Shown: piece after piece, positions 7,116-61,043 of the stretch
Layout: each line of letters starts with the position of its first letter
How positions within the stretch are numbered: position 1 is the first letter of the stretch
Source: an uncultured Candidatus Saccharibacteria bacterium
Lineage (GTDB): Bacteria; Patescibacteriota; Minisyncoccia; Portnoybacterales; UBA2143
Direction: 5' to 3'
NCBI GenBank assembly: GCA_964594965.1
Contig: CAZQMX010000001.1
Span: 25,667-89,666 of the forward strand
Length of the DNA: 64,000 bases
Position numbers and translations under genes: made by a program
The notes under the pieces: model-generated
What the model saw: only the letters and a program-made list of their open reading frames with translations
What the model was told of the DNA's origin: nothing
Databases searched by the model: none

Positions 7116-7168
7116 CCAAATCTTTGATTTGGTTAGGAACAGTTATCCTGAGCGAAGTCGAAGGATCT
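7116..7168 (+). repeat. CCAAATCTTTGATTTGG hairpin plus the left arm of the MITE-like element (copy A, truncated)
   Basis: GTTATCCTGAGCGAAGTCGAAGGATCT matches the left arm of the other five copies. The right arm is absent. Confidence 0.5.
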
Positions 7169-7176
7169 TATCCAAT

Positions 7177-8409
7177 ATGTATTTAGTTAATACATTAAAA
7201 CTAGCTTTAAGAAATTTGACCTTGCAGAGGAGCAGGTCTTTTTTGACTATGCTCGGAATCATTATTGGTGTTGCTGCCGTTATTTCAATCATTGCCGTTG
7301 GAGCCAGCGCCCAGGATTTGCTTTTAGCCCAGGTTAGGGCAATGGGAAGTAATTTAATTGGTATTCTTCCCGGAGCGAGCGATGAATCCGGACCGCCGGC
7401 CAGTGTCCTTGGTATTGAAGTCACAACTTTGAAATATGAGGATGCTTTGGCTTTGGAAAAAATTCCTCAGATTGAAGCCGTTGCTGCCTATTCCAAGGGA
7501 CGGGGGACAATGAGTTTTTTTAATAAATCAAATGATTTTGACTATACCGGGGTAACGCCAAGTTATCTTAATGTTGAAGATACTGAACTGGAATCAGGCC
7601 GTTTTTTCAGACAAGAAGAAGTTGATAGTTTGGCCCGGGTGGTTGTTTTAGGCAGCAAAGTCAGAGAAGAACTTTTTGGCCAGAACAACCCAATAGATGA
7701 GAGAATTAAGATTAATCAGATTAGTTTTAAAGTTATTGGAGTAATGGAGGAAAGAGGTTCGGCCGCTTTTCAAAATCAGGATGAACAGGTCTTTATTCCA
7801 TTAAAAACAGCCCAGAAAATTATGCTAGGAGTAGACCACCTGGCTTTTATCCGGGCTAAAGTAGACCAGACCAAAAATATTGATCTGGTCATTCCTCAAA
7901 TTAAAAACATTCTTCGCTTCCGCCATAATATTAAAGACCCAACCAAGGATGATTTCTCTGTTAGGAGTACTGATCAGGCCCTTGACCTGCTTGGTTCAAT
8001 CACCCAGGCCTTAAAAGTATTTCTAGGCATGGTTGCCGCTATTTCGTTAATTGTCGGCGGTATCGGCATTATGAATATTATGTTTGTTGCTGTTAATGAA
8101 AGAACCAAGGAAATTGGTCTTCGAAAAGCAATTGGCGCCAAACGAAGAGATATTTTAATCCAGTTTTTAATTGAAAGCGCGACCATGACTTTAATCGGCG
8201 GAATCATCGGTATTATTGTTGGTATTATCATTTCTTTCCTAATTTTCATTGGTGTTAAATATTTTGGCTACGACTGGCGATTTATTGTCACTCCTTTTTC
8301 CATTTTTGTTTCAACTTTTATGGCTATTGCGGTCGGCCTAATTTTTGGCCTTTGGCCAGCTAACCGGGCTTCAAAGTTAAATCCAATTGAGGCGCTTAGG
8401 TATGAGTAA
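7177..8409 (+). CDS. ABC transporter permease, MacB/FtsX-like
   Basis: MacB-type periplasmic domain followed by an FtsX 4-TM domain (GGIGIMNIM). Start moved to the ATG after repeat copy A. The track start is a TTG that translates the repeat. Confidence 0.7.
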   Translation: MYLVNTLKLALRNLTLQRSRSFLTMLGIIIGVAAVISIIAVGASAQDLLLAQVRAMGSNLIGILPGASDESGPPASVLGIEVTTLKYEDALALEKIPQIEAVAAYSKGRGTMSFFNKSNDFDYTGVTPSYLNVEDTELESGRFFRQEEVDSLARVVVLGSKVREELFGQNNPIDERIKINQISFKVIGVMEERGSAAFQNQDEQVFIPLKTAQKIMLGVDHLAFIRAKVDQTKNIDLVIPQIKNILRFRHNIKDPTKDDFSVRSTDQALDLLGSITQALKVFLGMVAAISLIVGGIGIMNIMFVAVNERTKEIGLRKAIGAKRRDILIQFLIESATMTLIGGIIGIIVGIIISFLIFIGVKYFGYDWRFIVTPFSIFVSTFMAIAVGLIFGLWPANRASKLNPIEALRYE

Positions 8410-8529
8410 TGCCTCAGATACATTTTTTGCCGGAGGACACCATATTTGCCTGCTGACAAATTGGCTCGTTCTCGCGCCGTCGCGCTTCGAAGGCCTCCTG
8501 CAAAAAAGTATCTTTCGGCTTTTTAAAAG

Positions 8530-9792
8530 ATGGACCCAATCTCTGTTTTAAAACAATCTATTATTTCTCTTAAGGCCAATAAACTCCGAAGTATCTTTTC
8601 TATCCTCGGAATTGTTATTGGTGTTTCAGCCGTTGTCATAATTCTCTCTCTTGGACAGGGATTAAAAGGGTTGGTCACAAATGAAGTTGAATCTTTTGGT
8701 TCAAATATTTTAGCAATCAATGTCAAGATTCCTGGAGCTGGCCAGATAGGAACTCTTTTTTCAACTGCCCAGGGGATCAAAGTTACAACCTTAAGATTAA
8801 AAGATGTTCAGGATTTACAGAACAAAGAAAACTTTCCCTACATTGAAGCTGTTACCGGTCAGGTCTTTGGCCAGGAATGGGTTAGTTACGGTAATAAGGA
8901 TAAAAAGGTCTTACTTTACGGCGGCAGTCCTGATTTCCCACAAATATTTAAAACTCTTGGAATGGAAACCGGCCGCTATTTGAATAAAAATGAAGATGAT
9001 AGTTTGGCTAAAGTAACGGTTTTAGGCAACAATCTGAAAGAAAAACTTTTTGGCCAAACTGACCCAATTGGCAAGAAGATAAAATTAAATGGATTGAGTT
9101 TTAAGGTTATTGGTGTTTTTGAACCTTACGGCGGAATGTCTTTTGGCGGAATTGATATTAACGATTTTATGTATATTCCTCTCCAGACCGCCTTAAAAGA
9201 AGTTTTAGGTATTGACTATTTATCAGAAGTTGATGTTGTTGTTAAGGACGAATCATATTTCCCGAGAGCCATCAGCGATATTTCAAGATTACTCCGAAAG
9301 AATCATAATATTAAAGACCCGGAAAAAGACGATTTCCAGATTACAACCATGACCGAAGTTATTGAACAGGTTAATGAAGTCAGCGTTATTCTAAATCTTC
9401 TTTTAGGATTTTTAGCAGCGATCTCGCTTTTAGTTGGCGGAATTGGTATTATGAATATTATGTTGGTCTCTGTTAGCGAAAGAACAAAAGAGATTGGTTT
9501 GAGAAAAGCGCTCGGGGCGACGAATAAGGGGATTTTGTACCAATTTCTAATTGAGGCTATGGTTATTACCGGTCTGGGCGGAATAATCGGCATTATTATC
9601 GGAATAGGCAATTCGCTCATTACCAGTATTATTATCCGAACCCAAGGATTGCCTGGTTGGCCATTGACTATATCAGGAATGGCAATCATTATCGCATTCC
9701 TTGTTTCAATGTCTATTGGTTTAATCTTCGGTATCTATCCGGCGAGGAAAGCGTCTCAATTAAATCCAATTGAGGCGCTTAGAAAAGAATAG
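8530..9792 (+). CDS. ABC transporter permease, MacB/FtsX-like (second copy)
   Basis: Paralogous to 7177..8409 with the same GGIGIMNIM motif. Confidence 0.7.
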   Translation: MDPISVLKQSIISLKANKLRSIFSILGIVIGVSAVVIILSLGQGLKGLVTNEVESFGSNILAINVKIPGAGQIGTLFSTAQGIKVTTLRLKDVQDLQNKENFPYIEAVTGQVFGQEWVSYGNKDKKVLLYGGSPDFPQIFKTLGMETGRYLNKNEDDSLAKVTVLGNNLKEKLFGQTDPIGKKIKLNGLSFKVIGVFEPYGGMSFGGIDINDFMYIPLQTALKEVLGIDYLSEVDVVVKDESYFPRAISDISRLLRKNHNIKDPEKDDFQITTMTEVIEQVNEVSVILNLLLGFLAAISLLVGGIGIMNIMLVSVSERTKEIGLRKALGATNKGILYQFLIEAMVITGLGGIIGIIIGIGNSLITSIIIRTQGLPGWPLTISGMAIIIAFLVSMSIGLIFGIYPARKASQLNPIEALRKE

Positions 9793-9818
9793 GAACCTTA
9801 AAAAACAGGAGGTCACTA

Positions 9819-10349
9819 ATGAAAAGAAAAGGATTGTTTTTGGTCGTTTTGGTTATGTCGTTTTCGTTGATTCTGGGCTGTGGAACACTTGCTAAATTAA
9901 AACAGCCCAAAGGCCCGGAATTCGCAGAAGAGGTTGGAAAAAGATTGTTTACCCGCGAGGATAAAGAAACAGGCGAATATATACCCGTATCTAGAAAATG
10001 GGGTTACAAAGTGCTGGCTTACGGAAAAGGAATCTGGAGAAAGTTGGTAAAAACATCAGCTAACGGGAAAAAGGAGTTCAAAGATATAGAAATCGACTGG
10101 GGCGCCTATTCGATTGAAACAGAGGCTGGACAGACTCAAGTAGATATTTTCATGAATCAAAAGATTTCCCGGGGAAAAATAAGGGAGTTTATGAAAAAGA
10201 AAAAACCCGGAGATACATTTTATCATGGAGGGTACCCAAGTATCCCCAAATCAACTCTCTTTGTTTTCCGGGGAATAAGCGAACTACCGGGACCAATAGG
10301 AGAGTTGGCGGACAAAGGAATCAAATTAACGGTTAGCGAATATTTTTAA
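9819..10349 (+). CDS. lipoprotein, function unknown
   Basis: Signal peptide with a lipobox LILGC. Preceded by a GGAGG ribosome-binding site. Confidence 0.45.
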   Translation: MKRKGLFLVVLVMSFSLILGCGTLAKLKQPKGPEFAEEVGKRLFTREDKETGEYIPVSRKWGYKVLAYGKGIWRKLVKTSANGKKEFKDIEIDWGAYSIETEAGQTQVDIFMNQKISRGKIREFMKKKKPGDTFYHGGYPSIPKSTLFVFRGISELPGPIGELADKGIKLTVSEYF

Positions 10350-10412
10350 CAATTGACCAAGGCGGGTACTCTGTGTGTGGGTACCCGCTAAAAATTATCA
10401 AAGGAGCGACCA

Positions 10413-10580
10413 ATGAGAATCTTAAGGCGTTTCCTCTGGTTGGTGGTCTTGGCCGTAATCGTCTCTGGCTTCTATTTTTTTCTTTTTTCGAAGGCAAGGC
10501 CGTTCATGGAAATTATTGGGGAGACTATGACGGTTAAAGAAAAATACTGGAGGGAAGCAATAAGGCACTTTAAACCATAG
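10413..10580 (+). CDS. possible 55-aa membrane peptide (not in the ORF track)
   Basis: ATG preceded by AAAGGAG. One TM helix. Lies in a locally GC-richer island flanked by hairpins. Could be spurious. Confidence 0.2.
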   Translation: MRILRRFLWLVVLAVIVSGFYFFLFSKARPFMEIIGETMTVKEKYWREAIRHFKP

Positions 10581-10581
10581 A

Positions 10582-10616: not shown

Positions 10617-10648
10617 CAAGGAACATTTTTGTCTGATATAATCAGATA

Positions 10649-13917: not shown

Positions 13918-14703
13918 ATGAAAAACATAAAGGAAATTACAAAAGAAGAATTAGATAATTTGAAAGCTATCACCTTTGATATCGACGGAGTCATTGCTCC
14001 GATTGGGACGAAAATAAAGGAAACTATTGACGAAGATAGTATTGATTTATACATGGAATCAAAGAAACTTTCTGACAAATTTATCCAAACCCTTAAAAAA
14101 CTTGAAAAGCATCTTCGTCTTAATTTCTCATCCGGGAGAAACATTTTGTATCTCAAAAGCTTGGTTAATGAAATTTTTGACGAAAAAACAGTTCTTCAGG
14201 CAGAAAATGGCAATATTACCTGGGTTGATAACCAGATTACTCATCCAAAATATCCAAACGAATATTTTAACCTTTTAAGAGATTTAAAAGAGAAAATCAG
14301 GCAAATGAAAAAAACCGACGAAAGAATTCGCGGTTTTGAACCAAAGTTATTCATTTTAACTGTTCATTCTGAGCAAATGGAAGAAATTCCTAATTTAGTC
14401 AAAGAAATAGGGGGAGAGCAGCTTTATTGCCTTTGGACAAACGAGGGCTATGATATTGGCAGTCTTGATATGTCAAAAGGAAAGGGGATTGAAATTTTAG
14501 CCAAGGCTATGGGGATTAATCCAAAACAGATTATGACAACAGGGAATAATTACAATGACCAGCCCATGCTTGATGTTGGCAAAGGAGTATCAGTTAATCC
14601 TGAAAGAGTTAAAGGAGAATATTTTGTTGAGCATAAAAAAGAAGAACTCGGCGGAGAATTATTAGCCGAGTTCCTCTTAAAACATTTTGAAAATAAAAGT
14701 TAG
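13918..14703 (+). CDS. HAD-superfamily hydrolase (Cof/IIB-like phosphatase)
   Basis: FDIDGV motif I and a C-terminal GNNYNDQPM motif. Start moved to the ATG just after a TGTATAAT element, so the mRNA may be leaderless. Confidence 0.55.
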   Translation: MKNIKEITKEELDNLKAITFDIDGVIAPIGTKIKETIDEDSIDLYMESKKLSDKFIQTLKKLEKHLRLNFSSGRNILYLKSLVNEIFDEKTVLQAENGNITWVDNQITHPKYPNEYFNLLRDLKEKIRQMKKTDERIRGFEPKLFILTVHSEQMEEIPNLVKEIGGEQLYCLWTNEGYDIGSLDMSKGKGIEILAKAMGINPKQIMTTGNNYNDQPMLDVGKGVSVNPERVKGEYFVEHKKEELGGELLAEFLLKHFENKS

Positions 14704-15708: not shown

Positions 15709-15778
15709 GTCATTCTGAACGAAACGAAGTGGAGTGAAGAATCTTTTTTACAGATCCTTCGCTAACGCTCAGGATGAC
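15709..15778 (-). repeat. MITE-like palindromic element, copy B (minus orientation)
   Basis: GTCATTCTGAAC...GAAGAATCT / AGATCCTTCGCT...CTCAGGATGAC. Sits 14 nt upstream of the trpS start. Confidence 0.7.
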
Positions 15779-15787: not shown

Positions 15788-16516
15788 TTATTTTTTATCT
15801 AATTTTTTAAAAGTTTTGATAATAGGTGAGAGATCACCGTCAATAATTTTATCCAAATTATGCCAGGATTTCTTAATCCGATGGTCAGTAATCCTGTTTT
15901 GCGGAAAATTGTATGTTCTGATTTTCTCTGCCCGCATGGCCATACCAATCTGTCCCTTTCTTTCATCGCCCCGTAGGGCCAGATCTTCTTCTCTTTTTTT
16001 AGCCAAAAGGCGAGCCCGCAGAACATTCATTGCTCTTTCCTTGTTTTGTTGTTGGGATCTTTCTTCCTGACAAGTAACCATTATTCCGGTCGGAGTATGA
16101 ATAATTCTAACAGCTGATTCAGTCTTATTAACATGCTGGCCACCCGGCCCAGAAGCTCTTAAAACATCGATCCTAACATCCTTTGGATTAATCTTTATTT
16201 CAGTTTCAGTTGCTTCTTCTAAAACAGCGACCGAAGCAGTTGAAGTATGGACTCGGCCTGATTTCTCTGTAGTTGGAACGCGCTGGACCCGATGAACTCC
16301 GCCTTCGTATTTTAACTCTTGATAAGCATTTTCTCCCTTTATTTCAAAAACAATTTCCTTGTAGCCGTTTAATTCAGATTGACTACTATTAATTAAAAGA
16401 GTTTTCCAGTTTTCCTTTTCAGCAAAGCGGGAATACATTCTAAAGAGGTCGCCAGCGAAAATGGCTGCTTCTTGTCCGCCGGCACCAGCTCTGATTTCAA
16501 TAATTACACCCTTCAT
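15788..16516 (-). CDS. prfA: peptide chain release factor 1, lacking the N-terminal domain 1
   Basis: GGQ motif and an RF1-type PxT tripeptide (PTT). 242 aa, beginning at the domain-2 sequence [11 protein letters not shown]. The upstream sequence encodes L31, not the missing domain. Confidence 0.7.
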
Positions 16517-16749
16517 TTTTTCTTTTTAGTTTTTAAGCCAAGTTTCTTTTCTCTTTTAGCCAATCTTTGCCTGAATTTTTCAACCTGGCCGGTTTCAATA
16601 ATTTTTTCCTTGCCGGTATAAAATGGATGGCATTGAGAACAGATTTCAACTTCCATATTTTCCTGAGTTGAACCAATTTCAAAGACTGCGCCGCAAGCGC
16701 ATTTAATCTTGGTGTCAGGATAATATTTCGGGTGGATATCTTTTTTCAT
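16513..16749 (-). CDS. rpmE: ribosomal protein L31
   Basis: [10 protein letters not shown]...CACG...[10 protein letters not shown]. The track ORF is trimmed to this internal Met. Confidence 0.8.
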
Positions 16750-17029
16750 TAGGGATATCATAACAAACATTGATTTATTTTTCAAGATAGTATAGGATAA
16801 TGTTGTAAATAGGGGAGGGAGAAAGGCCTTTTCAAAAAAGGCGTTTTTTAAGAGTTTATGCCCGGTAGTAGAATTTCGATAATCGCCAAGAGCGATAAAA
16901 TACCGGAGCATAGTGTTAAAGCTAAGATTATTAATTTATTTCGATAGTAATCATAGAAATTCTATTATTAAAATCGAAATTTCACTACCGGGTATGGCAG
17001 AGAAGAAGACAAAAAAAACAAAGAAAAAA

Positions 17030-17710: not shown

Positions 17711-18165
17711 AAAATATGATATCAACTGAACAAATTAAAAATCTTCGCCAAAAAACAAATCTTTCTGTTATGGAATGTAAAAAAGCATTAACAGAAGCCA
17801 AGGGCGATGAGAAAAGAGCTCTTCAGATTTTAAGCAAAAGAGGGGCAGAAAAAGCAATTAAGAAATCCGAAAGAGAAACCAAACAGGGATTAATCGAATC
17901 ATACATCCACAACAATGGCAAAATCGGAGTAATTTTAGAACTCAACTGCGAAACAGACTTTGTTGCCAGAAATGAAGAGTTTAAGAATTTAGCTCATGAT
18001 TTAGCCATGCATACTGCTGCCCTGGAACCCAAGGATGAAAAAGAACTGCTTGAACAGCCTTTTATCAAGGACGAAAGCAAAACAGTCAAGGATTTAATTA
18101 CCGAAGCCGTTGCCAAACTGGGCGAGAATATTAAAGTTGGCAAATTTGTTCGGATAGAGATATGA
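17707..18165 (+). CDS. tsf: elongation factor Ts (short form, 152 aa)
   Basis: N-terminal UBA-like LSVMECKKAL and core TDFVARNEEF. Confidence 0.7.
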   Translation: MKNMISTEQIKNLRQKTNLSVMECKKALTEAKGDEKRALQILSKRGAEKAIKKSERETKQGLIESYIHNNGKIGVILELNCETDFVARNEEFKNLAHDLAMHTAALEPKDEKELLEQPFIKDESKTVKDLITEAVAKLGENIKVGKFVRIEI

Positions 18166-18848
18166 GTATTTTATCCTACATCTTCATCGGATTAGTTGGG
18201 TCAAGTTTAATTGGTCTGGGAATTGTTGTTTACCGCAAGATTCCTGTTTTAGCTAATCTCTCAGAAGAGGAGATGATGATTTTAATCAAGAAAAGGGGAT
18301 TGGTTGAAAAAACCAGAGAGGTTAATTACAAACAGCATTGGCTTAATTTAATTGTCACTCTCCAGAAGTTTTTAATGCGGGTCAGAATTATCTTCCTTAA
18401 AACCGAGAGTATCCTCGGAAAATGGATCGGCGGATTAAGAGGTAGTTCAAAAACAATGACCCAAAAATCAAAAGAATGGATTAGACAGAGGGAAATAAGG
18501 AGAAAAGAAAGACACAGCAAGTTAAATGGGAAAATAAATGGGAAGGAGCCGGAAGAATTTATTCTCCAGATAAACAAAGAAAAAACAAAACCCAAACCGG
18601 AAAAAGAAGAAGACGAAATTACTCTTGATGAATTAAATAAACCAATCAAAGAAGAACAGCAATGGATTGACCTGATTGTTGAGAATCCAAAAAATATTAC
18701 TGCTTACAAATTCCTGGGATTGTTTTACCATAAACAGCATAACTATTCTGATGCCAAAGCATCATTGGAAATGGCAGTCAAACTTGGCTCCAAAGACAAA
18801 AAAGTCAAAGATATCCTCAAGGAATTAAAAGAAATGGAAATAGAGTAG
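18162..18848 (+). CDS. hypothetical protein with an N-terminal TM helix and a TPR-like C-terminus
   Basis: ORF only. Confidence 0.3.
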   Translation: MSILSYIFIGLVGSSLIGLGIVVYRKIPVLANLSEEEMMILIKKRGLVEKTREVNYKQHWLNLIVTLQKFLMRVRIIFLKTESILGKWIGGLRGSSKTMTQKSKEWIRQREIRRKERHSKLNGKINGKEPEEFILQINKEKTKPKPEKEEDEITLDELNKPIKEEQQWIDLIVENPKNITAYKFLGLFYHKQHNYSDAKASLEMAVKLGSKDKKVKDILKELKEMEIE

Positions 18849-18966
18849 GCCAGTGTAGTCCCGATTTTGTTCAAATCTCTGATTTGAATACAAAACCGCG
18901 GATCCTCGAAAATTATAAAATCAAAAGATTTTTAATTTTCGGGACTCAATGAGGTAACATATTCTA

Positions 18967-19201: not shown

Positions 19202-19267
19202 CGCGTTTTTTATCCAAAACTTGTTTTGGGTATAAAAAAGAGCGTCCCGTCGGATGACGGGACTCAC

Positions 19268-25850: not shown

Positions 25851-26290
25851 CGTACCGAGGGCAGGACATTTCGGGGGTGTTCGAACCTATTGAATTTTAA
25901 TTGAAAATAGATTATCTTTTTATTAAGAAATAGATATCTTGTATAAAATCCGGTAACTTTGAGCAACGTCATAGCCTCAAAAGAGGACTGGCGAAAAGTA
26001 CGAATTCTTTTTGTGGTCTATGCGACTTTGAAAAAGTTTATGGGCTTTCCAAAAGTGGTCACGAAAATTTAAGGGGGTGCTACCATAAATAGCTCGTTGA
26101 TATAGTTGTCCGGAAACCAAATCCCTCCTGGATATCTATTTCTTAAAATCAAAGAAGAGAGATTGCGTTTTTCTCTCTTCTTTTCTGTTCAACAAATAAG
26201 TTCGAAAGTCGTCCCATCGGGGGAGCCAGATTATCAAGATTCAAACCGAGACTTGACAAGGCCCTATAAATGAAATAAGATTTATGTAGC

Positions 26291-26352
26291 TGTAGACAAT
26301 AGGTGGCTTTGGCGGAAATCCTATCGAGGCGAGTGCCTTTTAATTGTCTACA
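26291..26352 (+). ncRNA. candidate structured RNA element: 10-bp stem TGTAGACAAT/ATTGTCTACA enclosing 42 nt
   Basis: Perfect inverted repeat inside the ~730-bp ORF-free region. Identity unknown. Confidence 0.25.
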
Positions 26353-26426
26353 TATTCGTAGGCATTTTTAATTTTTTGTCTGAATTTTAGAGCCGTAGGC
26401 GAATAAAATTTAGGAACAAAACATTA

Positions 26427-27064: not shown

Positions 27065-27559
27065 ATGGCAGAAGAAAACAAGAAGGAAGAAACTCCTAAA
27101 GAGGAGGCTCCTAAAAAAGAAGAGGCGCCAACACCTGAGAAAAAAGAAAAGGAAGTTCCCGCCCCGTCGGCGGACAAGGAGGTGCCAAAGAAATTCAAAG
27201 ACTTAGTCAAACAAATTGAAGAACTAAGTGTTTTGGAATTAGCCGAATTGGTTAAAGTTCTAGAGGATAAGTTTGGTGTCAGTGTCCCGCAGTACAGCGG
27301 GATTGCTCCGGCTGCCGGAGGCGCTCCAGCTGAAGGCGGAGAAGAAAAAAGCATCTTTGACATCGAGCTCAAAAGCTCTGGTGACCAGAAAATCAGTGTT
27401 ATTAAGGTGGTTAAAGAAATTACAGACCAAGGATTAAAAGAAGCTAAAGAAATTGTTGATAGCGCTCCGAAAGTTATCAAACAGGGCGTTAAAAAAGAAG
27501 AAGCCGAAGAAATCAAAAAGAAACTAGAAGAAGCCGGCGCAACAGTAGAATTAAAATAA
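27065..27559 (+). CDS. rplL: ribosomal protein L7/L12 with an E/K/P-rich N-terminal extension
   Basis: C-terminal domain KFGVSVP...[56 protein letters not shown]. Confidence 0.8.
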
Positions 27560-27567
27560 CTATTTAT

Positions 27568-27660
27568 CCAAATCTTGATTTGGTAGTAAATAGTTATCCT
27601 GAGGAGCAAAGCGACGAAGGATCTATAACTAACAGATTCTTCGCTAACGCTCAGAATGAC
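27568..27660 (+). repeat. CCAAATCTTGATTTGG hairpin plus MITE-like element, copy C
   Basis: GTTATCCTGAGGAGCAAAGCGACGAAGGATCT / AGATTCTTCGCTAACGCTCAGAATGAC. Between the rplL stop and the ATG at 27680. Confidence 0.7.
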
Positions 27661-27679: not shown

Positions 27680-28255
27680 ATGGCTAAAGAAATTTTAGAA
27701 CAACTTTTCGACTCACCAGTTAAAGTTAAATTACTTAAGCTATTCCTAAGGAATACAAGCGATTCTTTTGAATTAAAAGATATTATCAGACGAACCAGAA
27801 GCAATCCTTCTATTTGCCGCAATCAGATAAAGAAGTTAGAAAATATTAAACTGATAAAAGGTAAATTCAAAGGAAGAGCCAAGGCCTATAGTGTTAACTC
27901 TGACTTTGACTTTTACAATGAGCTCAAAACATTGATTTTGAAATCCAGCCCAGCTTCGAAGAATAAGCTGACTGGCCGGATAAAATCAATTGGAAGAATT
28001 AAATTAGGAATTATTTCTGGTATCTTTATTGACAGCGATAATTCAAGGGCAGATCTTTTAATAGTCGGAGACGCAATTAAAAGGAAGAAATTATCAGATT
28101 TTCTAAGAGAATTGGAAGCTGAAGTTGGTAAGGAAATTGATTATGTTGTTTTATCAACAGCTGAGTTTAAATATCGTTATGATATGTTTGATCGGTTTAT
28201 CCGTGATTTTCTGGAAAAACCGCATGAAAAATTAATCAACAGATTAAAGGTTTAG
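27680..28255 (+). CDS. winged-helix DNA-binding domain fused to a minimal nucleotidyltransferase-like domain; function unknown
   Basis: wHTH-like N-terminus. C-terminal GIISGIFIDSDNSRADLLIV resembles the pol-beta NTase GS...DxD motif. Start trimmed to the ATG after the repeat. Confidence 0.35.
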   Translation: MAKEILEQLFDSPVKVKLLKLFLRNTSDSFELKDIIRRTRSNPSICRNQIKKLENIKLIKGKFKGRAKAYSVNSDFDFYNELKTLILKSSPASKNKLTGRIKSIGRIKLGIISGIFIDSDNSRADLLIVGDAIKRKKLSDFLRELEAEVGKEIDYVVLSTAEFKYRYDMFDRFIRDFLEKPHEKLINRLKV

Positions 28256-28721: not shown

Positions 28722-28861
28722 CTTGTGGAAAACTAAAAAACACATTACCTAAGAGCGTCTGGGGATAAAATGTGGACAGGAAATAGGGGATTTTAATTAA
28801 TTTGGCTTTAATAAGCCATTTTTTATTTTACCCCATTAGAAATAAGGGTAATTTTAAGTGT

Positions 28862-28890
28862 TTGACATGCCTAATAAAGTAGCATAAAAT
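28862..28890 (+). promoter_or_regulatory. putative sigma-70 promoter of the mraZ/dcw operon (TTGACA, 17-nt spacer, TAAAAT)
   Basis: Consensus -35 with canonical spacing, about 200 nt upstream of mraZ. Confidence 0.5.
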
Positions 28891-28988
28891 GGGTATGAAG
28901 TGAATGATTGTGGATAAAAGTGGGGATAAGTATATAAAATTGTGGATAACTGACTATTTTGTCTTAATCTTTGATTCAGATACAAAAT

Positions 28989-29055
28989 ATCATCCTGAGG
29001 AGCGAAGCGATCGAAGGATCTGTACAAACAGATTCTTCGCTTTGCTCAGAATGAC
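28989..29055 (+). repeat. MITE-like palindromic element, copy D
   Basis: ATCATCCTGAGGAGCGAAGCGATCGAAGGATCT / AGATTCTTCGCTTTGCTCAGAATGAC. 38 nt upstream of mraZ, inside the operon leader. Confidence 0.7.
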
Positions 29056-29092: not shown

Positions 29093-29524
29093 ATGCTCAT
29101 TGGGGAATACAAACACATACTTGATGCTAAAAAAAGATTGGCTATTCCAGTCAAATTCAGGCGTTTTTTCAGCCAAGGAGCAGTCATTACCCGCGGAATT
29201 GATAATTGTTTGATTCTTTATCCGCTTAAGGAATGGGAAAGTATGGCTGGTAAATTAGGTCAGTTGCCAGCCAGCCAGATTGAAGCAAGGAGTTTTGCTA
29301 GAATTATGCTGGCTGGGGCTATGGCAGTAAAATTTGACCGATTGGGTCGAATTCTTGTTCCGGACTATCTGAAAAAATATGCTTTTTTGAAAAAGGGCGC
29401 TGTCATTATCGGCTTATACAATCGTCTTGAAATCTGGGCAGAAGAGAAATGGGAGACCTATCGAGGAAAGGCTGAAAAGGAGGTCGGCGACTTAGCTGCT
29501 AAACTAGGGGAATTGGGCTTGTAA
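29093..29524 (+). CDS. mraZ: transcriptional regulator MraZ
   Basis: MLIGEYKHILDAKKRLAIPVKFR, a typical MraZ N-terminus. Start trimmed from the track ORF, which translated the repeat. Confidence 0.75.
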   Translation: MLIGEYKHILDAKKRLAIPVKFRRFFSQGAVITRGIDNCLILYPLKEWESMAGKLGQLPASQIEARSFARIMLAGAMAVKFDRLGRILVPDYLKKYAFLKKGAVIIGLYNRLEIWAEEKWETYRGKAEKEVGDLAAKLGELGL

Positions 29525-32495: not shown

Positions 32496-32626
32496 AAAAA
32501 TAACCAATCACCAAGATACAAGATACAAACAAATCTCAAACATCAATAATCAATCACCAAAAATTAATTTATTTGATTATTGATTATTATTTGGTTATTG
32601 TTTCTTGTTTCTTGATTATTTGAAAA
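32496..32626. repeat. AT-rich imperfect palindrome built from 7-nt periodic repeats (CAAGATA... / ...TTTCTTG)
   Basis: The left arm has heptamers ending in CAA. The right arm has heptamers TTGATTA/TTTCTTG, which are their reverse complement. Confidence 0.55.
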
Positions 32627-33895
32627 ATGCGTAGCATTTTACAATATATTCTAAAAATTCTGGCTAAAGTAGTCCTATATCGGTACAAACCGGAAATTGT
32701 TGCTGTAACCGGTAACGTTGGCAAAACCAGCACCAAAGAAGCTATTGCCCAGGTTTTAGAAAAATTCTTTCGGGTCAGACAAAACAAGAGGAATTACAAT
32801 AATGAGATTGGAGTGCCTTTAACAATAATTGGCTTAGAGACCGGCGGGAGTTCATTAATTGCCTGGTTGAAAAATTTTTTACTCGCTCTTAGAACAATTT
32901 TATGGAGAGGTGATTATCCGGAAATTCTGATTCTGGAGATGGGCATTGATAAGCCCGGAGATATGGAATATTTAATGAGTTTTATCCCGGTTGACGTCGC
33001 CGTTATCACCGCTATTGGAGAATTTCCTGTTCATCTTGAATTTTTCCCTGGAAAAGGAAAATTGGTTCAAGAAAAAGCCCTTTTGGCTAAATCACTTGAC
33101 GGAGAAGGCCAGGTGGTTCTAAATTACGATGATTTATCTGTTCGGGCGATTGGCGATGAGTTGCCCGAGGGATTAAAAAAGATTCAATACGGATTTGGTC
33201 AGGCAGCGAATTTAAGAATTATGAATTATGAATTAGGAATTAGGAATTTAGAAAAAAAAGATTTTGGCATAAGTTTCAAATTAGAATATGGAGGAAGTAT
33301 TGTCCCGGCCCAGATAAAGGGGGCAACCGGAAAACAACATGCCTTTGCCCTTGCCGCTGCCGCCGGAGTTGGATTGTATTTCGGCCTTAATCTGGTTGAG
33401 ATTTCAGGAGCTTTCAAAAAACATAGATCCTTACCCGGCCGAACCAACCTCTAAAAAGGAATTAAACAAACCTGGATTATTGATGATAGTTACAATGCTT
33501 CGCCTTTGGCAACTTTAGCTTCTCTGGAAATTCTAAACCAATTTTCAGAAGGAAAAAGAAGGAGAATTGCAGTCCTGGGTGATATGCTTGAATTAGGGAG
33601 CAAAACCGAAGAAGGTCATCGCCAAGTTGGAAAAAAAGTAAAAGAAACTGCTGATTTGCTTTTTACTGTTGGCAGCCGGGCTATCTTTATCGCTGACCAA
33701 GCCAGAAAAGCAGGAATGAAAAAAGAAAATATTTTTGAGTTCCAGACCTCAAAACAAGCCGGACTAGCAGTCCAAAAACAACTAATCAGCCAGGATATTA
33801 TTCTAGTTAAAGGGTCGCGCTCAATCCATACGGAAGAAGTTACCAGAGAAATTATGGCTCATCCGGAAAAAGCCGATGAATTGTTGGTAAAATAA
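32627..33895 (+). pseudogene. murF: UDP-MurNAc-tripeptide--D-Ala-D-Ala ligase MurF interrupted by a single in-frame TAA at 33452-33454
   Basis: Mur ligase P-loop TGNVGKTSTKE in ORF 1. DDSYNASP and the C-terminal domain are in ORF 2, which is in the same frame. The spacing GR-(14 aa)-DDSYNA matches intact MurF if the stop is read as sense. This may be a sequencing error or a genuine nonsense codon. Confidence 0.6.
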
Positions 33896-41906: not shown

Positions 41907-41929
41907 GCCAATTTTTTCTAAATTTTAAT

Positions 41930-41967
41930 TTAGATAAAAAATTGAGCATCCCGCAGTATTGCGGGAT
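41930..41967 (-). terminator. hairpin ATCCCGCAGTATTGCGGGAT with T-tracts on both sides
   Basis: Perfect 8-bp stem lying between the dnaB stop and the recR start. Confidence 0.45.
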
Positions 41968-41976
41968 CACTCTTTT

Positions 41977-46321: not shown

Positions 46322-46759
46322 ATGCCCATTAAATGGCAACCATTTAAAGATTTAAATAGACGACCTCATCTTCCTGATGTTTTTGAAGAAGATGACCGGA
46401 TGCCTTTTTCTCCACATTTCCGACAGGAAGAACCGACAATTGACATTTATCAGGATAGAAATAATCTCTACATTGAACTTCCTTTAATTGGCATTAAAGC
46501 CAAGGATGTTAGTATTTCTATAGAGAATAGTGTTTTAATTATTGAAGGGAAAATACAGGAAAAGAAAGAAGCCAAAGAAAAGGACTATATCAGAAAAGAA
46601 ATCAGAAAAGGTTCTTTCCATCGGGCAATCAGATTGCCGGTTGAAGTTAAAGGGAACCAGGCCAGCGCTGAAACATCTGAAGGCATGCTTAAAATCACTC
46701 TTCCCAAAGCAGTTAAAGGGGCTCCTAAAGCTAACCGAGTCCCAATTAAGATTAAGTGA
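46322..46759 (+). CDS. Hsp20/alpha-crystallin small heat-shock protein
   Basis: Alpha-crystallin domain (IDIYQDRNNLYIELPLIG...GSFHRAIRLP). Confidence 0.8.
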   Translation: MPIKWQPFKDLNRRPHLPDVFEEDDRMPFSPHFRQEEPTIDIYQDRNNLYIELPLIGIKAKDVSISIENSVLIIEGKIQEKKEAKEKDYIRKEIRKGSFHRAIRLPVEVKGNQASAETSEGMLKITLPKAVKGAPKANRVPIKIK

Positions 46760-46767
46760 GTATTTTT

Positions 46768-46865
46768 CTAAATCTCTGATTTAGTTTAAAATAGTCATCC
46801 TGAGGGCGAAGCCCGAAGGATCTATGGCAAAGAAAAGATAGATTCTTCGCTTCACTCAGAATGAC
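46768..46865 (+). repeat. CTAAATCTCTGATTTAG hairpin plus MITE-like element, copy E
   Basis: GTCATCCTGAGGGCGAAGCCCGAAGGATCT / AGATTCTTCGCTTCACTCAGAATGAC, ending 9 nt before the dnaK ATG. Confidence 0.7.
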
Positions 46866-46874: not shown

Positions 46875-48707
46875 ATGAGTAAAGTAATTGGTATTGATTT
46901 AGGAACCTCTAATTCTGCAGCCGCAGTTGTTGAGGCCGGAAAACCAACCATAATTCCTTCAGCCGAAGGAACAGTTATTGGCGGAGGCAAAGCCTTTCCG
47001 TCCTATGTTGCCTTTGATAAAGAAGGCAATCTTTTAGTTGGCGAACCAGCCAGAAGGCAGGCAGTCAGTAATCCGGAAAACACGATTTCTGCTTTCAAAC
47101 GGAAAATGGGGACAAAGGAAAAATATGCTATTAATGGCAAGGAATATACGCCGGAACAACTTTCTGCTTTTGTCCTGCAGAAAATTAAAAAAGATGCCGA
47201 GGCCTTTTTAGGCGAACCAATTCAAAAAGCCGTCATTACTGTCCCAGCCTATTTCAATGATTCCCAGAGACAGGCAACCAAAGATGCTGGTTCAATTGCC
47301 GGGCTGGAAGTTGTCCGGATTATTAACGAACCAACTGCAGCTTCTCTTTCTTACGGAATTGACAAAGCCGGCCAAGAAGAAAAGATTCTTGTTTTTGACT
47401 TTGGCGGCGGAACTCTTGATGTCACGATTATGGACTTTGGCGAGGGTGTTTTTGAGGTCAAATCAACTTCAGGCGACACTCAATTAGGCGGAACAGATAT
47501 GGATGAAGTTCTGGTTAATTACATTCTGGAAGAATTTAAAAACCAAAACAATGTTGATTTGAAAGAAGACCGGACGGCCTTGGAACGGGTTAAAGATGCG
47601 GCTGAAAAAGCCAAGATTGAGTTATCAAGTACTCTTGAAACCAATATTATTATTCCTTTTATCAGCCAATCAAAGGAATTAAACATGAAAATTACCCGGG
47701 CGAAATTAGAAGAATTAGTTAAGCCTATTGTTGAAAAATGCCGCGGTCCATTAGAACAGGCCCTAAATGATTCTAAACTAACTCCTAATGATATTACTAA
47801 AATAATTTTGGTTGGTGGACCAACCCGAATGCCATTGGTTCAGAAATTTGTTGAAGATTATGCCGGTAAAAAAATTGAAAGGGGAGTTGATCCAATGGAA
47901 TGTGTTGCTCTTGGAGCAGCAATTCAGGGCGGAATTCTAACTGGAGAAACAAAAGATGTTCTTTTGCTTGATGTTACTCCGCTGACTTTAGGAATTGAAA
48001 CCCTTGGTCAGGTCATGACCCCTTTAATTGAAAGAAATACGACCATACCAACTTCTAAGAGTCAGATTTTTTCAACGGCGGCTGATAATCAGCCGGCAGT
48101 TGATGTTCATGTTCTTCAGGGAGAAAGGCCAATGGCAACCGATAACCGAACCCTGGGTAGATTTATTCTTGATGGCATTCCGCCTGCTCCGCGGGGCGTT
48201 CCTCAGATTGAAGTTACTTTTGATATTGATGCTAATGGAATTCTTAATGTCAAAGCTAAAGATAAAGCAACGAACAAAGAACAGAAAATTACTATTACCG
48301 ATTCTTCATCTCTTTCTAAAGAAGATATTGAAAAGATGAAAAAAGAAGCTGAAGCTCATTCAGCCGAAGACCGAAAGAAAAAGGAATTAATTGAAACCAG
48401 AAATCAGGCTGATACTTTAATCTCTTCAACCGAGAAAGCCATGAAAGAAGCCGGAGATAAAGTTAAACCGGAGGATAAAAAAGAAGTTGAAGAAAAATTA
48501 GAATCTCTTAAGAAACTTAAAGATTCTAATGAAATTGAACCGCTTAAAAAAGCGATTGATGAATTATCCCAGGTTATTCAGAAAATCGGCGCTCAATTGT
48601 ATCAATCCGCCTCCGCTAAAGCTGCGGCGGACAAGAAAGTCTCAGAAGACAAGCCGGTGGACAAGACGGTTGAAGGAGAATACGAAGAAATTAAAAAGGA
48701 GGAATAA
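46875..48707 (+). CDS. dnaK: chaperone DnaK (Hsp70)
   Basis: [18 protein letters not shown], 610 aa. Confidence 0.9.
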
Positions 48708-57075: not shown

Positions 57076-57120
57076 GGCTTTCTCTAAAATTTCTGCGAAA
57101 TTTTAGCTAGAAAACCTTTA

Positions 57121-57219
57121 CCCCGCCCCCTATACTCTGACTCAATCATTAGAGAATTATACATAGAAACAGATTATCCGTATTATCAAACAAGAAATCA
57201 GAGTAAAGGGGGCGGGGTG
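57121..57219. repeat. 99-bp element bounded by 20-bp GC-rich terminal inverted repeats (CCCCGCCCCCTWTACTCTGA)
   Basis: Left arm 57121-57140, right arm 57198-57219, one mismatch in 20. The only C5GC5 run in the window. Confidence 0.55.
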
Positions 57220-57286
57220 CTCAATGTTGTAGCTAAATTTATTTCGCTACACTTGAGTTTCGCTCATAAATTTAGACAACATTCGC

Positions 57287-58381: not shown

Positions 58382-58460
58382 AATAATGAATAATGAATCA
58401 CGAATAAGGAATAGATTTAATTCTTGATTCCTAATTCTTAATTCTTAATTCTGATTCCTA
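58382..58460. repeat. inverted arrays of 7-nt periodic repeats (GAATAAT... / ...ATTCTTA)
   Basis: GAATAATGAATAATGAATCACGAATAAGGAAT | ATTCTTGATTCCTAATTCTTAATTCTTAATTCTGATTCC. Confidence 0.6.
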
Positions 58461-59567
58461 ATGAGAATAGTATTTGCCGGTGGCGGCACTGGCGGACATA
58501 TTTATCCGATTATTGCCGTAGCCAGACAATTAAAACAGGGACAAATACCCTTGGAAATGTTCTTTCTTGGACCAGTTGGTCCTTATCGTCAGGAACTGGA
58601 AAAAGAGGGGATTATTGTCAAGTCGGTCCTGGCCGGAAAATTAAGAAGATATTTTTCCATTTGGACAATTTTGGATATTTTAAAGTTTCCTCTTGGTCTA
58701 ATTCAATCTCTTTGGTATTTGTTTATCCTAATGCCGGACATTGTTTTTTCCAAAGGGGGATACGGCAGTGTTCCGATTACCCTGGTCTCCTGGACATATT
58801 TCATCCCAATCATTTCTCATGAATCAGATGCTGTTCCGGGTCTGGCTAATCGCATTGGAGCATTTTTTTCAAAAAGAATTGCTCTTTCATTTCAATCGGC
58901 CGGGAAGTATTTTTCTTCTAAAAAAACTGCTTTGGTTGGTAATCCAATCCGTTCAGAGATTGCCCAGATTTGTCTTTCAACTGATTCTCAAGAAAAAGAA
59001 AAAGGCAAACAACTTTTTAGCATTTCCGGTCAAAAGCCAATTATTTTGATTTTAGGCGGCAGTCAGGGGGCAGAGAAAATTAATCGATTGGTCTTATCCG
59101 TTTTGCCCAGTCTCTTGGAGAAATATGAGGTTATTCATCAATCCGGGCCAAAAAATTATGAGAAGATAAAAAGCTGGTTAAAGCAAATGCCGGTTAATTA
59201 CCATCTCTTTCCATTTTTGGATGAAAACCAGATTGCCCACGCCTATCTTGTTTCTAATCTAATCATTTCCCGGGCCGGAGCAGGAAGTATTTCAGAAATT
59301 GCCGCTTGCGGAAAGCCAAGCATTTTAATCCCAATTCCTAAATCAGCCTCTGACCATCAGAGAAAAAATGCTTTTGATTACGCTCGGGCCGGAGCAACAT
59401 CAGTTCTGGAACAGGATAATTTAACGCCTAATTTGCTCTTAAACGAAATATCAGAGATACTGGATAATCCGGAATTAGCCCAGAAAATGTCTTTGAATGC
59501 CAAGAATTTTTCCCGGCCCCGAGCCGCCCAAAAAATCGCAGAGGAAATAGTTGAGATGGGGAGGTAG
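58461..59567 (+). CDS. murG: UDP-GlcNAc--MurNAc-pentapeptide GlcNAc transferase MurG
   Basis: GGGTGGHIYP N-terminal motif and the GT28 C-terminal domain. Confidence 0.85.
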   Translation: MRIVFAGGGTGGHIYPIIAVARQLKQGQIPLEMFFLGPVGPYRQELEKEGIIVKSVLAGKLRRYFSIWTILDILKFPLGLIQSLWYLFILMPDIVFSKGGYGSVPITLVSWTYFIPIISHESDAVPGLANRIGAFFSKRIALSFQSAGKYFSSKKTALVGNPIRSEIAQICLSTDSQEKEKGKQLFSISGQKPIILILGGSQGAEKINRLVLSVLPSLLEKYEVIHQSGPKNYEKIKSWLKQMPVNYHLFPFLDENQIAHAYLVSNLIISRAGAGSISEIAACGKPSILIPIPKSASDHQRKNAFDYARAGATSVLEQDNLTPNLLLNEISEILDNPELAQKMSLNAKNFSRPRAAQKIAEEIVEMGR

Positions 59568-59570
59568 TAT

Positions 59571-61043
59571 ATGAAAAAAAATCAAGAAACACAAGTTAGG
59601 TTTGCGCCGAGTCCGACCGGGCTGTTTAGTATAGGCAATGCTCGGACGGCTCTTTTTAACTATTTATTCGCCAAACAGAACAAAGGTAAATTTATTCTTC
59701 GAATAGAAGATACTGATGAAGACCGCTCTGAAAAAAAATATGAGAAAGATATCATAGAGAATCTGAAATGGCTTGGATTAAATTGGGACGAAGGACCAAT
59801 AAAACAGAGTGAAAGAACAGAAATTTATCAGAAAGAAATTAAAAAACTCCTTGAACAAGGAGATGCTTTTTTCTGCGACCACACCAAAGAAGAATTAAAC
59901 GAAGAGAAAGAAGAGCAAAGTAAGAGAAAAGAGGCTCCCCGGCATATTTGCAATCGTCCTAATTATGTCATTCTGAAGGAGTCGAAGACGACTGAAGAAT
60001 CTGTTAACAGATCCTTCGCTGACGCTCAGGATGACAGAGGTAAAAAGGATACTAGAAACAAGAAGGGAATTATTCGATTCCGGACGCCCAAAGGAAAAAT
60101 TACTTTCAATGATTTAATTCGGGGGAAAGTTGAAATTAACGGAGAGCTATTAGGGGATTTCAGCATTGCCAAGGATGAAAAAACTCCTTTATATAATTTT
60201 AGCGCGGTTGTTGACGACGCCGAAATGAAAATATCTCATGTTATTAGAGGAGAAGACCATCTTCCCAATACGCCTAAACAAATCCTCCTATACAAAGCCC
60301 TTAAATTAGATGTGCCGGAATTTGCTCATTTGCCTTTAATTTTAGGTCCAGATAGGTCTAAAATGAGCAAAAGGCATGGATCAACCTCTGTTGGTCAATA
60401 CAAAAAAGAAGGGTATTTACCAGAGGCGATAAATAACTTTTTAGCGCTTTTAGGCTGGAATCCAGGAACGGAAAAAGAAATATTTTCAATGAATGAATTA
60501 ATCAAGGAATTTTCTCTTGAAAGAGTTCATAAAGGCGGAGCAATTTTTAACATTGAACGATTGGATTGGATTAATGGACAATATATTCGGCAGATGGATT
60601 TAGATGAATTAACCAAGAAATGCCTTGAATATTTACCAAAAGAAACAGATTTTGAATACGCTAAGAAAATAGTTAAATTAGAACAGGAAAGAATTAAGAG
60701 ATTGTCGGAAATAGGGGAGTTAAGTCAATTCTTTTTTAAGGATAAACTAGATTATGATAAAGAACTCTTAATTTGGAAGAAAATGTCTTTAGAACAAGTT
60801 AAGGAAAAACTGGAATTAATACTCAAAGAATTAGAAAAAGTAGGGGATTTTGATCAAGAAAACCTGGAATATCTAATGATGCCTCTGGCGGAAAAACACG
60901 GCCGAGGCGAGCTTCTATGGCCTCTGAGAGTGGCTTTAACAGGCCAAAAGGCCTCACCCGGACCTTTTGAGATAATGGAGGTTTTGGGTAAGGAAAAGAC
61001 CTTAGAAAGAGTGGAAGAAGCAATAAAAAAACTCCAAGAATAG
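59571..61043 (+). CDS. gltX: glutamate--tRNA ligase carrying an in-frame 23-aa insertion
   Basis: PSPTG...IGNARTA and KMSKR motifs. Insertion VILKESKTTEESVNRSFADAQDD is encoded by MITE copy F. Confidence 0.85.
   Translation: MKKNQETQVRFAPSPTGLFSIGNARTALFNYLFAKQNKGKFILRIEDTDEDRSEKKYEKDIIENLKWLGLNWDEGPIKQSERTEIYQKEIKKLLEQGDAFFCDHTKEELNEEKEEQSKRKEAPRHICNRPNYVILKESKTTEESVNRSFADAQDDRGKKDTRNKKGIIRFRTPKGKITFNDLIRGKVEINGELLGDFSIAKDEKTPLYNFSAVVDDAEMKISHVIRGEDHLPNTPKQILLYKALKLDVPEFAHLPLILGPDRSKMSKRHGSTSVGQYKKEGYLPEAINNFLALLGWNPGTEKEIFSMNELIKEFSLERVHKGGAIFNIERLDWINGQYIRQMDLDELTKKCLEYLPKETDFEYAKKIVKLEQERIKRLSEIGELSQFFFKDKLDYDKELLIWKKMSLEQVKEKLELILKELEKVGDFDQENLEYLMMPLAEKHGRGELLWPLRVALTGQKASPGPFEIMEVLGKEKTLERVEEAIKKLQE
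59967..60035 (-). repeat. MITE-like palindromic element, copy F (minus orientation), 69 nt, in-frame inside gltX
   Basis: GTCATTCTGAAGGAGTCGAAGACGACTGAAGAATCT / AGATCCTTCGCTGACGCTCAGGATGAC. Starts on a gltX codon boundary and is 23 codons long. Confidence 0.7.

Follow-up and report, generated by a model that had tools for sequence, protein, structure and literature searches.

Inverted pairs of small hairpin modules in a Patescibacteria genome, probably a REP/REPIN-like repeat

The stretch of DNA analysed here, 64 kb of contig CAZQMX010000001.1 from a Portnoybacteria-like member of the Patescibacteria (in the following: the window), carries six copies of a short palindromic element, which had been described from the letters alone (the sequence-only reading) as a family of long palindromes lying mostly upstream of start codons. 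Copies, open reading frames (ORFs) and Pfam domains were read in this window. The pattern GTCATYCTGAG-N6-16-GAAGRATCT gave 6 matches, all at the positions reported before, versus 0 in 100 dinucleotide-preserving shuffles, and the 11-mer with at most one mismatch gave 12 matches versus 1.35 expected, namely 11 true arms (five dimers and one singlet) and a chance match at 14363. Each of the four forward copies directly follows another hairpin, about 36 nt long and called hp1 here (consensus CTATTnnTCCAAATCTnTGATTTGGnnnAAATAG), which the sequence-only reading had missed. The six copies are:

7142..7168, plus strand: singlet module of the C:G type, 8 nt 5' of the ATG of the MacB-type permease gene at 7177
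15709..15778, no strand assigned: inverted heterodimer without hp1, between a release-factor ORF (stop 15788, minus strand) and trpS (start 15695, minus strand)
27593..27660, no strand assigned: inverted heterodimer, pattern match, 19 nt 5' of an ATG at 27680
28989..29055, no strand assigned: inverted heterodimer, pattern match, 37 nt 5' of the mraZ ATG at 29093
46794..46865, no strand assigned: inverted heterodimer, pattern match, 9 nt 5' of the dnaK ATG at 46875
59967..60035, no strand assigned: inverted heterodimer of 69 nt or 23 codons, in frame inside the gltX ORF 59571-61043

By Pfam, the gene orders around the copies are ABC ATPase, element and MacB-type permease; release-factor ORF, element and trpS; L7/L12, element and an unknown ORF; element and mraZ; HSP20, element and dnaK. 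The gaps between element and ATG for the five copies upstream of start codons (8-37 nt) agree with those claimed before. The sixth copy, located correctly before, is more than an unplaced one; it encodes VILKESKTTEESVNRSFADAQDD in a hypervariable loop of the glutamyl-tRNA synthetase (GluRS), following a C-x-H...H-x-C knuckle. The gltX gene including the element was assembled identically and independently in JGI and ENA data, and thus the assembly artefact named as a possible objection does not apply. A further 10 kb upstream in the same genome contained no additional copy, and about 81 kb of this genome was inspected for the 6 copies.

The arms of the palindrome had been thought complementary except for two dinucleotides, which alternate as CC and TT between the arms and would fix the orientation of each copy. 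Neither statement was borne out. Inner segments are unequal between the arms in 5/5 window dimers (16/7, 12/7, 13/6, 10/6 and 16/7 nt), and a single C/T base covaries with a G/A base of its own arm and not with the opposite one, so that no orientation is defined by CC/TT. This was assessed in 378 modules, taken from the window, from 35 viral-contig stretches and from the matches listed in a scan for the exact pattern GTCATYCTGAG-N4-20-GAAGRATCT-N4-24-AGATYCTTC in a representative genome of each species. Since these patterns fix most stem positions, the structure is tested by the free positions alone. Complementarity between the Y of GTCATYCTGAG and the R of GAAGRATC holds in 370/378 modules (T:A 193, C:G 177), and in 129 distinct dimers from 112 loci their association is strong within each arm (Fisher p = 2e-34 and 3e-33) and absent between arms (p = 0.21 and 0.48). 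A second pair at position 12 covaries likewise (G12:C 176, A12:T 26, mismatches 12, p = 1e-22), the inner stem shows compensatory variants (GGC/GCC, CCC/GGG, TCC/GGA) with mostly GNA loops, and arms differ in inner length in 85/129 dimers. C/T-mixed dimers occur in 55/112 loci, and the homo- and heterodimer classes, counted with one dimer per locus, stand at 29:30:25:23, the expectation for independent arms. Covariation that preserves pairing, as the sequence-only reading had anticipated, is hence found within the arm and not between arms, which makes the arm the unit and the palindrome an inverted pair of units of the repetitive extragenic palindromic (REP) kind: the 70-nt palindrome is two self-contained hairpin modules, inverted, tag-outward and usually a heterodimer.

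Each module, about 26-40 nt long, consists of an unpaired (T/C)GTC tag, a 5-bp stem AT-Y-CT / AG-R-AT, two tandem G.A mismatches, a G:C-rich apex and a C-T tail, the inner stem being variable, short and G:C-rich and its loop GNA or GNNA. The base before GTC, free in the pattern, is T in 312 (83%) and C in 40 (11%) of the 378 modules, and the bases before and at the tag in the window read TGTC, AGTC, AGTT and ATAT. AGRAT is followed by C, then by T in 370/378 and by a further C in 205/378, giving a tail C-T-(C). The AT...AT at the stem base occurs in every window module, the same positions being fixed by the pattern in the wider set. Because the two tag-outward modules make the dimer two-fold symmetric, each strand has one GNA-type module at its 5' side. 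Two dimer subfamilies are present in the window, one formed by the copies at 15709 and 59967, in which the inner segment is 16 nt long and pair 12 is A:T, the other by the three hp1-linked dimers with a long left and a short right arm, and this suggests that dimers propagate as units.

The commonest module apexes are exactly G-CGNAG-C (6-mers CGCAGC, CGAAGC, CGTAGC and CGGAGC) or G-CGNNAG-C (7-mers), the same apex as that of the d(GCGNAGC)/d(GCGNNAGC) mini-hairpins (Hirao et al.; review PMC13037366). As DNA these melt at about 76-82 C and as RNA they are much weaker; they are nuclease resistant, poorly bound by single-strand binding protein (SSB) and found at priming sites on single-stranded DNA (ssDNA) and at N4 promoters (PMC13037366). 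The mini-hairpin is a physico-chemical motif of phage origins, ssiA and N4 promoters and no repeat family, and we infer its role in the modules. Nearest-neighbour parameters reproduced the expected topology in 6/8 DNA folds. Wobble exceptions are without strand bias (17 G:T vs 10 A:C). Folded as RNA, the dimers reach -28 to -35.6 kcal/mol (z -3.5 to -6).

Empty orthologous sites were looked for, and four occupied sites were found empty in relatives with 76-93% identical proteins: gltX, the L12 spacer, the mraZ 5' untranslated region (5'UTR) and the hsp20-dnaK spacer. Homologues of gltX with 76-78% identity have no insert, and a block of about 85 nt is extra in the window on DNA alignment. The spacer between L7/L12 and the following ORF measures 120 nt in the window versus 29 and 69 nt of unrelated sequence in two relatives (L162 and L163), both of which also lack the roughly 135 extra nt (hp1 plus dimer) of the mraZ 5'UTR. 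In the closer relative, L162, a conserved region with promoter and MraZ boxes runs almost directly into the mraZ ATG; the window copy lies 3' of this promoter and hence in the 5'UTR, and RsmH identity of the relatives lacking it is 65-82%. The hsp20-dnaK spacer spans 115 nt in the window versus 2, 4 and 14 nt in three relatives, whose DnaK is 93, 88 and 88% identical. Hp1 and dimer are jointly absent from the three intergenic empty sites, and stop codons differ there (L12 TAG in relatives vs TAA in the window, hsp20 TAA vs TGA). The four main relative loci (about 80 kb) contained no module and, by covariance-model scan, no hp1 copy; in all, about 96 kb from three relatives is free of copies. 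No direct repeat flanked any copy on comparison with the four empty sites. The empty sites are read as recent gain in this genome, four independent precise losses in several relatives being much less parsimonious.

The elements fill small intergenic spacers, which measure 2-69 nt in relatives. A preference for sites close to the Shine-Dalgarno (SD) sequence, suggested before, did not hold up: the hp1-linked copies start exactly at the upstream stop, and for 81 intergenic copies in other genomes the median distance is 39 nt to the end of the preceding ORF and 81 nt to the following start. Of these, 46 are found between unidirectional, 25 between convergent and 10 between divergent ORFs.

Further copies occur beyond this genome, in other bacteria, viral contigs and plasmids. 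The exact 29-base pattern was found in at least 120 stretches from about 20 phyla in the representative-genome scan. Among the matches listed are Nitrospirota, several proteobacterial classes, Bacillota, Bacteroidota, Ignavibacteriota, Gemmatimonadota, Omnitrophota and Acidobacteriota as well as Armatimonadota, Chloroflexota, Planctomycetota, Verrucomicrobiota, Patescibacteria, Synergistota, Spirochaetota, Actinomycetota, Deinococcota, Cyanobacteriota and others, and isolates of Pedobacter and Flavobacterium are among the carriers; Pedobacter carriers include P. alluvionis DSM 19624 and P. nototheniae. The scan of viral contigs yielded 35 stretches, some with tandem arrays, which are also present in Pedobacter. 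With the consensus dimer, BLAST against plasmids and phages gave no match at E<=1e-3; at E<=5 single-arm matches appeared in cyanobacterial, Hymenobacter, Granulicella and Phocaeicola plasmids, and those in phages were weak only. About eight credible in-frame intragenic copies were seen (IleRS, an NtrC-like regulator, TatD, a glycosidase-like protein), and at a locus of plasmid NZ_LR882964.1 from Planktothrix agardhii (1440-1640 of the locus) tandem GTCAT dimers stand in frame in a coding sequence annotated as MmeI restriction-modification; they are preceded by a related short repeat GTCATYCCCCAGRCYCCGAC.

A linked gene did not emerge. All-vs-all BLAST of 1404 ORFs within 1.5 kb of elements revealed no recurrent gene family and only generic ABC ATPases and aminoacyl-tRNA synthetases; the 30 scanned window ORFs held no transposase or nuclease domain; and the N-termini of ORFs near four viral-contig arrays (L130, L135, L138, L151), read by eye with no domain search, suggested no obvious enzyme. 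An association with small GIY-YIG nucleases, considered as a candidate, was dropped, as a regular expression found it at 1 of about 120 loci and no such cluster existed among the 1404 flanking ORFs; the single case is an Omnitrophota locus (L035, 3937-4394), in which a small ORF with the GIY-YIG motif directly follows the dimer and the ORF call spans the element. Rfam returned no family on the window elements at the gathering threshold or at E<=10, and none at E<=1 on arrays and composites elsewhere. On direct reading, the window copies do not fit the hammerhead core (CUGANGA...GAAA), the integron attC motif (RYYYAAC/GTTRRRY) or, 5' of dnaK, the CIRCE element. Full-text searches for DNA strings of the element and derived peptides retrieved only primers or nothing, and searches on REPs and the candidate phyla radiation gave no paper that joins the two.

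In the second hairpin, hp1, the apex CCAAATC-N2-3-GATTTGG is conserved and the lower stem covaries. With a covariance model three window copies were added (19206, 41910 and a weak one at 57076), and all eight copies lie on the plus strand, which is G-rich throughout the window (positive GC skew):

7108..7143, plus strand: hp1, 53.2 bits, right after the ABC-ATPase stop (7105-7107), the stop pairing with TTA 7143-7145
27560..27594, plus strand: hp1, 48.6 bits, directly after the L7/L12 stop (27557-27559), absent in relatives
28955..28990, plus strand: hp1, 51.9 bits, in the mraZ 5'UTR, 3' of the conserved promoter/MraZ-box region
46760..46795, plus strand: hp1, 51.2 bits, after the hsp20 stop TGA (46757-46759), which is paired with TCA 46795-46797
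18863..18898, plus strand: solo hp1 with no GTCAT module behind it, 49 bits, 14 nt after the stop of ORF 18162-18848
19206..19240, plus strand: solo hp1, diverged, 38.7 bits, E 7e-6, between tRNA-Tyr and tRNA-Thr
41910..41944, plus strand: solo hp1, diverged, 36 bits, E 3e-5, between dnaB and recR (both minus)
57076-57117, plus strand: weak hp1-like hairpin from the covariance model

Across six window-type copies 95% of cells pair, with double changes at 7/14 pairs, and across 13 copies from other metagenomes 97% pair, with five double-change pairs; for the latter set, 0/500 shuffles reached the score. The upstream stop forms the first three pairs of the basal stem (TAA/TTA 12, TGA/TCA 6, TAT/ATA 1), and hp1 starts at this stop in 4/4 linked window copies and in 12/14 primary composites from other metagenomes. 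A metagenome scan for hp1 plus module found 28 stretches, mostly unrelated low-GC contigs from sludge and digesters, with the unit TRA-GCAGAYGNC-CCAAATC-TNT-GATTTGG-NGNCRGTCGC-TYA-TCCTGAG... after long ORFs, e.g., upp or a nicotinate phosphoribosyltransferase-like gene (named from translations). These composites are sometimes arranged in 62-nt tandem units and are always co-oriented with the upstream ORF. The stop may be carried by the element, TRA may be its target, or hp1 may act at the RNA level at the ORF end. GC-rich hairpins also follow two of the solo copies, at 19240-19267 (GAGC-GTCCCGTC-GGAT-GACGGGAC-TCAC) and at 41945-41975 (GAGC-ATCCCGCA-GTA-TTGCGGGAT-CAC, which looks like an AT-started REP-type stem), and the partner hairpins of hp1 may be of several kinds.

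Among known repeat systems, the CGTC-tagged REP superfamily (Di Nocera, De Gregorio & Rocco, 2013; PMC3733652), which includes Rickettsia RPE-4/RPE-6 and Neisseria dRS3, comes closest. It was described from five phyla, with tag variants TGTC and CCTC, stems of 8-9 bp, loops of 4-5 nt and a 3-nt tail that is mostly CCA; some species associate these REPs with other palindromes, and their uneven distribution was argued to rule out a general chromosomal function (PMC3733652). The likeness comprises the unpaired terminal CGTC/TGTC tag, a stem opening with complementary A and T, a short unpaired tail, the prevalence of inverted dimers, often heterodimers, beside singlets (five dimers and one singlet here; the tag-outward arrangement here may correspond to the "HH" of that paper), positions mainly between unidirectional or convergent ORFs with some in-frame intragenic copies including tRNA synthetases, and the lack of a flanking transposase. 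The differences lie in the module, with 5 Watson-Crick bp, two G.A and 2-5 bp and a loop of 3-4 nt (GNA/GNNA), so that the minimal module of nine stacked positions comes near the CGTC REP total with another anatomy; in the tail C-T(-C); in tandem clusters, which are not rare here; and in a range of about 20 phyla among the matches listed. As the stem, loop and tail values of the CGTC REPs are not those of the module, it works like a REP without being one of the four described CGTC families, and the exact module sequence was not found in text or supplements of that paper (PMC3733652). The best fit is the CGTC/TGTC-tagged superfamily, with the module as a new variant outside the four families; the earlier statement that no named element could be recognised is therefore fair for this exact family, while elements of its kind (REPs, REPINs, bacterial interspersed mosaic elements (BIMEs), CGTC REPs) have been described (PMC3733652).

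GTAG REPs, the REPINs (REP doublets forming hairpins) dependent on REP-associated tyrosine transposases (RAYTs), and E. coli BIMEs share with the element the small tagged hairpin, inverted pairs seemingly replicated together, single units left as remnants, clusters in which other motifs are interspersed and a presumed ssDNA hairpin substrate. They differ in the tag, which is (T/C)GTC here, and no RAYT/Y1 HUH gene flanks the element in about 150 loci (120 genome and 35 viral). REPINs are typically species- or genus-specific, whereas the module is common across phyla. RPE-1 of Rickettsia likewise places palindromic repeats in frame in housekeeping genes, adding 20-30 residues at surface-tolerant positions, but is about 100-150 bp long, unrelated in sequence and confined to Rickettsia. 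With miniature inverted-repeat transposable elements (MITEs; Correia, ERIC, Nezha etc.) the copies have in common that they are short, non-coding, palindromic, intergenic, co-transcribed and polymorphic for presence/absence. MITEs have terminal inverted repeats matching a parent insertion sequence (IS) and a target-site duplication; here, neither duplication nor parent IS was found, and the arms fold independently and are of unequal length.

Taken together, the copies are read as REP/REPIN-like non-autonomous repeated DNA, with a probability of about 0.7. The reading draws on the module structure established by covariation, the presence/absence polymorphism, the two dimer subfamilies and the range across phyla and viral contigs, and it retains the mobile miniature element of the sequence-only reading, for non-coding, repeated copies polymorphic at four sites, as REP/REPIN-like rather than MITE-like. 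The unit would be one hairpin module, and two inverted, tag-outward modules a REPIN/BIME-like dimer, which would settle in sites tolerating insertion, namely in very short intergenic spacers, in one 5'UTR and, in frame, in a permissive GluRS loop. The singlet and three of the dimers would have arrived with or next to hp1, and the stop of the gene upstream is supplied or overlapped by the 5' end of hp1. By analogy with REP/RAYT and IS200/IS605, the module may be read as an ssDNA hairpin by an enzyme acting in trans, and effects on neighbouring genes would be by-products of insertion.

Several observations weigh against this reading. For REPs, near-identity of sequence over about 20 phyla is unusual, and a conserved host function is possible. 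No mobilising enzyme was found in the roughly 81 kb of the genome inspected, and neither a target-site duplication nor a clean insertion boundary could be defined at the gltX, L12, mraZ and hsp20-dnaK sites, where absence in relatives could in principle also be loss. Most stem positions were set by the search patterns, and generic nearest-neighbour energies of single modules as DNA (-1.8 to -6.3 kcal/mol) are for the most part not better than those of shuffles, so that the module hairpin rests on covariation and published mini-hairpin chemistry. The strict co-orientation of hp1-linked copies with the upstream ORF, finally, is unforeseen by a purely DNA-level selfish model.

An alternative view is that hp1 plus module, transcribed together with the gene upstream, is a co-opted RNA element of operons at the ORF 3' end, serving as an mRNA stabiliser, a processing site or a stop/start coupling device, which would be compatible with a mobile origin. 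It is favoured by the position of hp1 at the upstream stop (4/4 in the window, 12/14 elsewhere) with the stop paired, covarying and co-oriented, by the hsp20-dnaK and ABC-permease pairs having been tightly coupled before insertion, and by REPs lying mostly downstream of ORFs and being transcribed (PMC3733652). We nevertheless consider it unlikely, since relatives do without the element, the plus-strand hp1 at 41910 stands between minus-strand genes and the solo copies at 18863 and 19206 adjoin tRNA genes; moreover, GC skew stays positive through the entire window, which confounds co-orientation with the direction of replication. Still less probable is a host-beneficial chromosomal DNA site, to which a widely conserved protein would attach in the way gyrase and IHF do at E. 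coli REPs/BIMEs, or a hairpin that recruits primase or excludes SSB. The near-identity of the 26-nt core in about 20 phyla among the matches listed, the two-fold symmetry of the dimer and the occurrence of mini-hairpins at ssDNA priming sites and N4 promoters, with poor SSB binding (PMC13037366), would suit such a site. However, the distribution is patchy (6 copies in about 81 kb here, 0 in the further 10 kb and 0 in about 80 kb of relatives), copies occur in coding regions and tandem arrays, and the uneven spread of CGTC REPs was argued to rule such a general function out (PMC3733652).

The sequence-only reading had offered a cis-acting 5'UTR hairpin, a thermometer or attenuator controlling dnaK, trpS, mraZ and other downstream genes, and this appears very improbable. 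Five copies do lie with their ends 8-37 nt ahead of a start codon in the transcribed strand, one of them in the mraZ 5'UTR 3' of a conserved promoter, the dimers fold well as RNA, and on an Armatimonadetes chromosome (OY970325.1, 2338-2404 of the locus) a dimer is situated 55 nt 5' of dnaK, which among about 120 loci is possibly coincidence. At -28 to -35 kcal/mol, however, the hairpin is too stable for the melting over 30-42 C that an RNA thermometer would need, and SD and AUG lie outside the pairing. Relatives with DnaK of 88-93% identity, in which the hsp20-dnaK spacer is 2-14 nt, and with RsmH of 65-82% identity lack the element at these sites; the conserved structure is the single arm and not the long hairpin; one copy is within gltX; flanking genes are unrelated in the 120 loci listed; wobble shows no strand bias; and Rfam gives no match. 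Chance similarity or an assembly or chimera artefact is of practically negligible probability: the source is a metagenome assembly, nothing more, but shuffles gave 0/100 against the 6 matches, JGI and ENA assemblies are identical and isolate genomes carry the element.

A bolder proposal is tentative and, in our estimate, rather doubtful. The hp1-plus-module composite could be a distinct, undescribed, strand-specific mobile unit (or a 3'-end RNA element) that lands on stop codons with a stop of its own, and, more broadly, the GTCAT module could be a pan-bacterial REP family kept by an unknown, very widespread ssDNA-hairpin enzyme, the missing "transposase" of CGTC-type REPs. The range of about 20 phyla, a DNA-specific apex and the lack of a linked gene sharpen the question asked in 2013 about the mobiliser of CGTC-type REPs and provide a comparative data set; if such an enzyme exists, this breadth would allow its identification by phyletic correlation, and the stop-codon-embedding hp1 is a separate lead. 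Streamlined Patescibacteria genomes of about 1 Mb, too, carry REP-like repeats lacking in close relatives, even in frame in an essential aminoacyl-tRNA synthetase. Reading the copies as repeated, probably selfish DNA rather than as a riboregulator of dnaK and trpS avoids false regulatory annotation and false ORF extensions; a spurious 206-aa "mraZ" ORF and VILSEAK/RFAQDD-type peptides are such extensions from the element in predicted proteins.

Some minor observations were made besides. Five GluRS homologues in Patescibacteria (P0005, P0049, P0061, P0075, P0090) have other low-complexity inserts in the same loop and at a second site (alignment columns 160-250 and 436-510, e.g., VIARSEA..TKQSR..IAALAPLARND), which by translation resemble other GTCAT-type palindromic repeat families (GTCATTGCGAG...). 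The strongly conserved region 28760-28950 5' of mraZ, shared with both relatives, contains a TTGACA-N17-TAAAAT-like promoter and repeated TGTGGATAA/TGGGGATAA boxes, which we take to be MraZ operator repeats. The mraY-ftsW spacer measures 211 nt in the window (57076-57286) versus 1 nt in the relative L003 and holds, beside the weak hp1-like hairpin, a 21-nt inverted repeat ACCCCGCCCCCTATACTCTGA/TCAGAGTAAAGGGGGCGGGGT (57120-57140/57198-57218); its content is probably a further small inserted element. Between a PBP gene and a Mur ligase gene, which overlap in L162, the window has 130 nt of AT-rich, palindromic sequence (32496-32626, arms 32545-32568/32597-32620), and this Mur ligase, one 422-aa gene in relatives, is split into Mur_ligase_M (32627-33454) and Mur_ligase_C (33506-33895) near an A5 run at about 33452, which represents a frameshift, a pseudogene or an assembly error. 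The release factor next to the trpS copy consists of two ORFs (132 and 242 aa; 15788-16911, minus strand) that share an ATGA overlap at about 16513-16516; the prfB frameshift site in its canonical form, CTT-TGA-C, is absent there, and the gene is perhaps split or recoded at an unusual site. Directly 5' of the L10 gene (26533), an L10 leader was matched by Rfam below threshold at 26272-26380 (41.1 bits vs a gathering score of 44, E 0.003) and is plausibly real.

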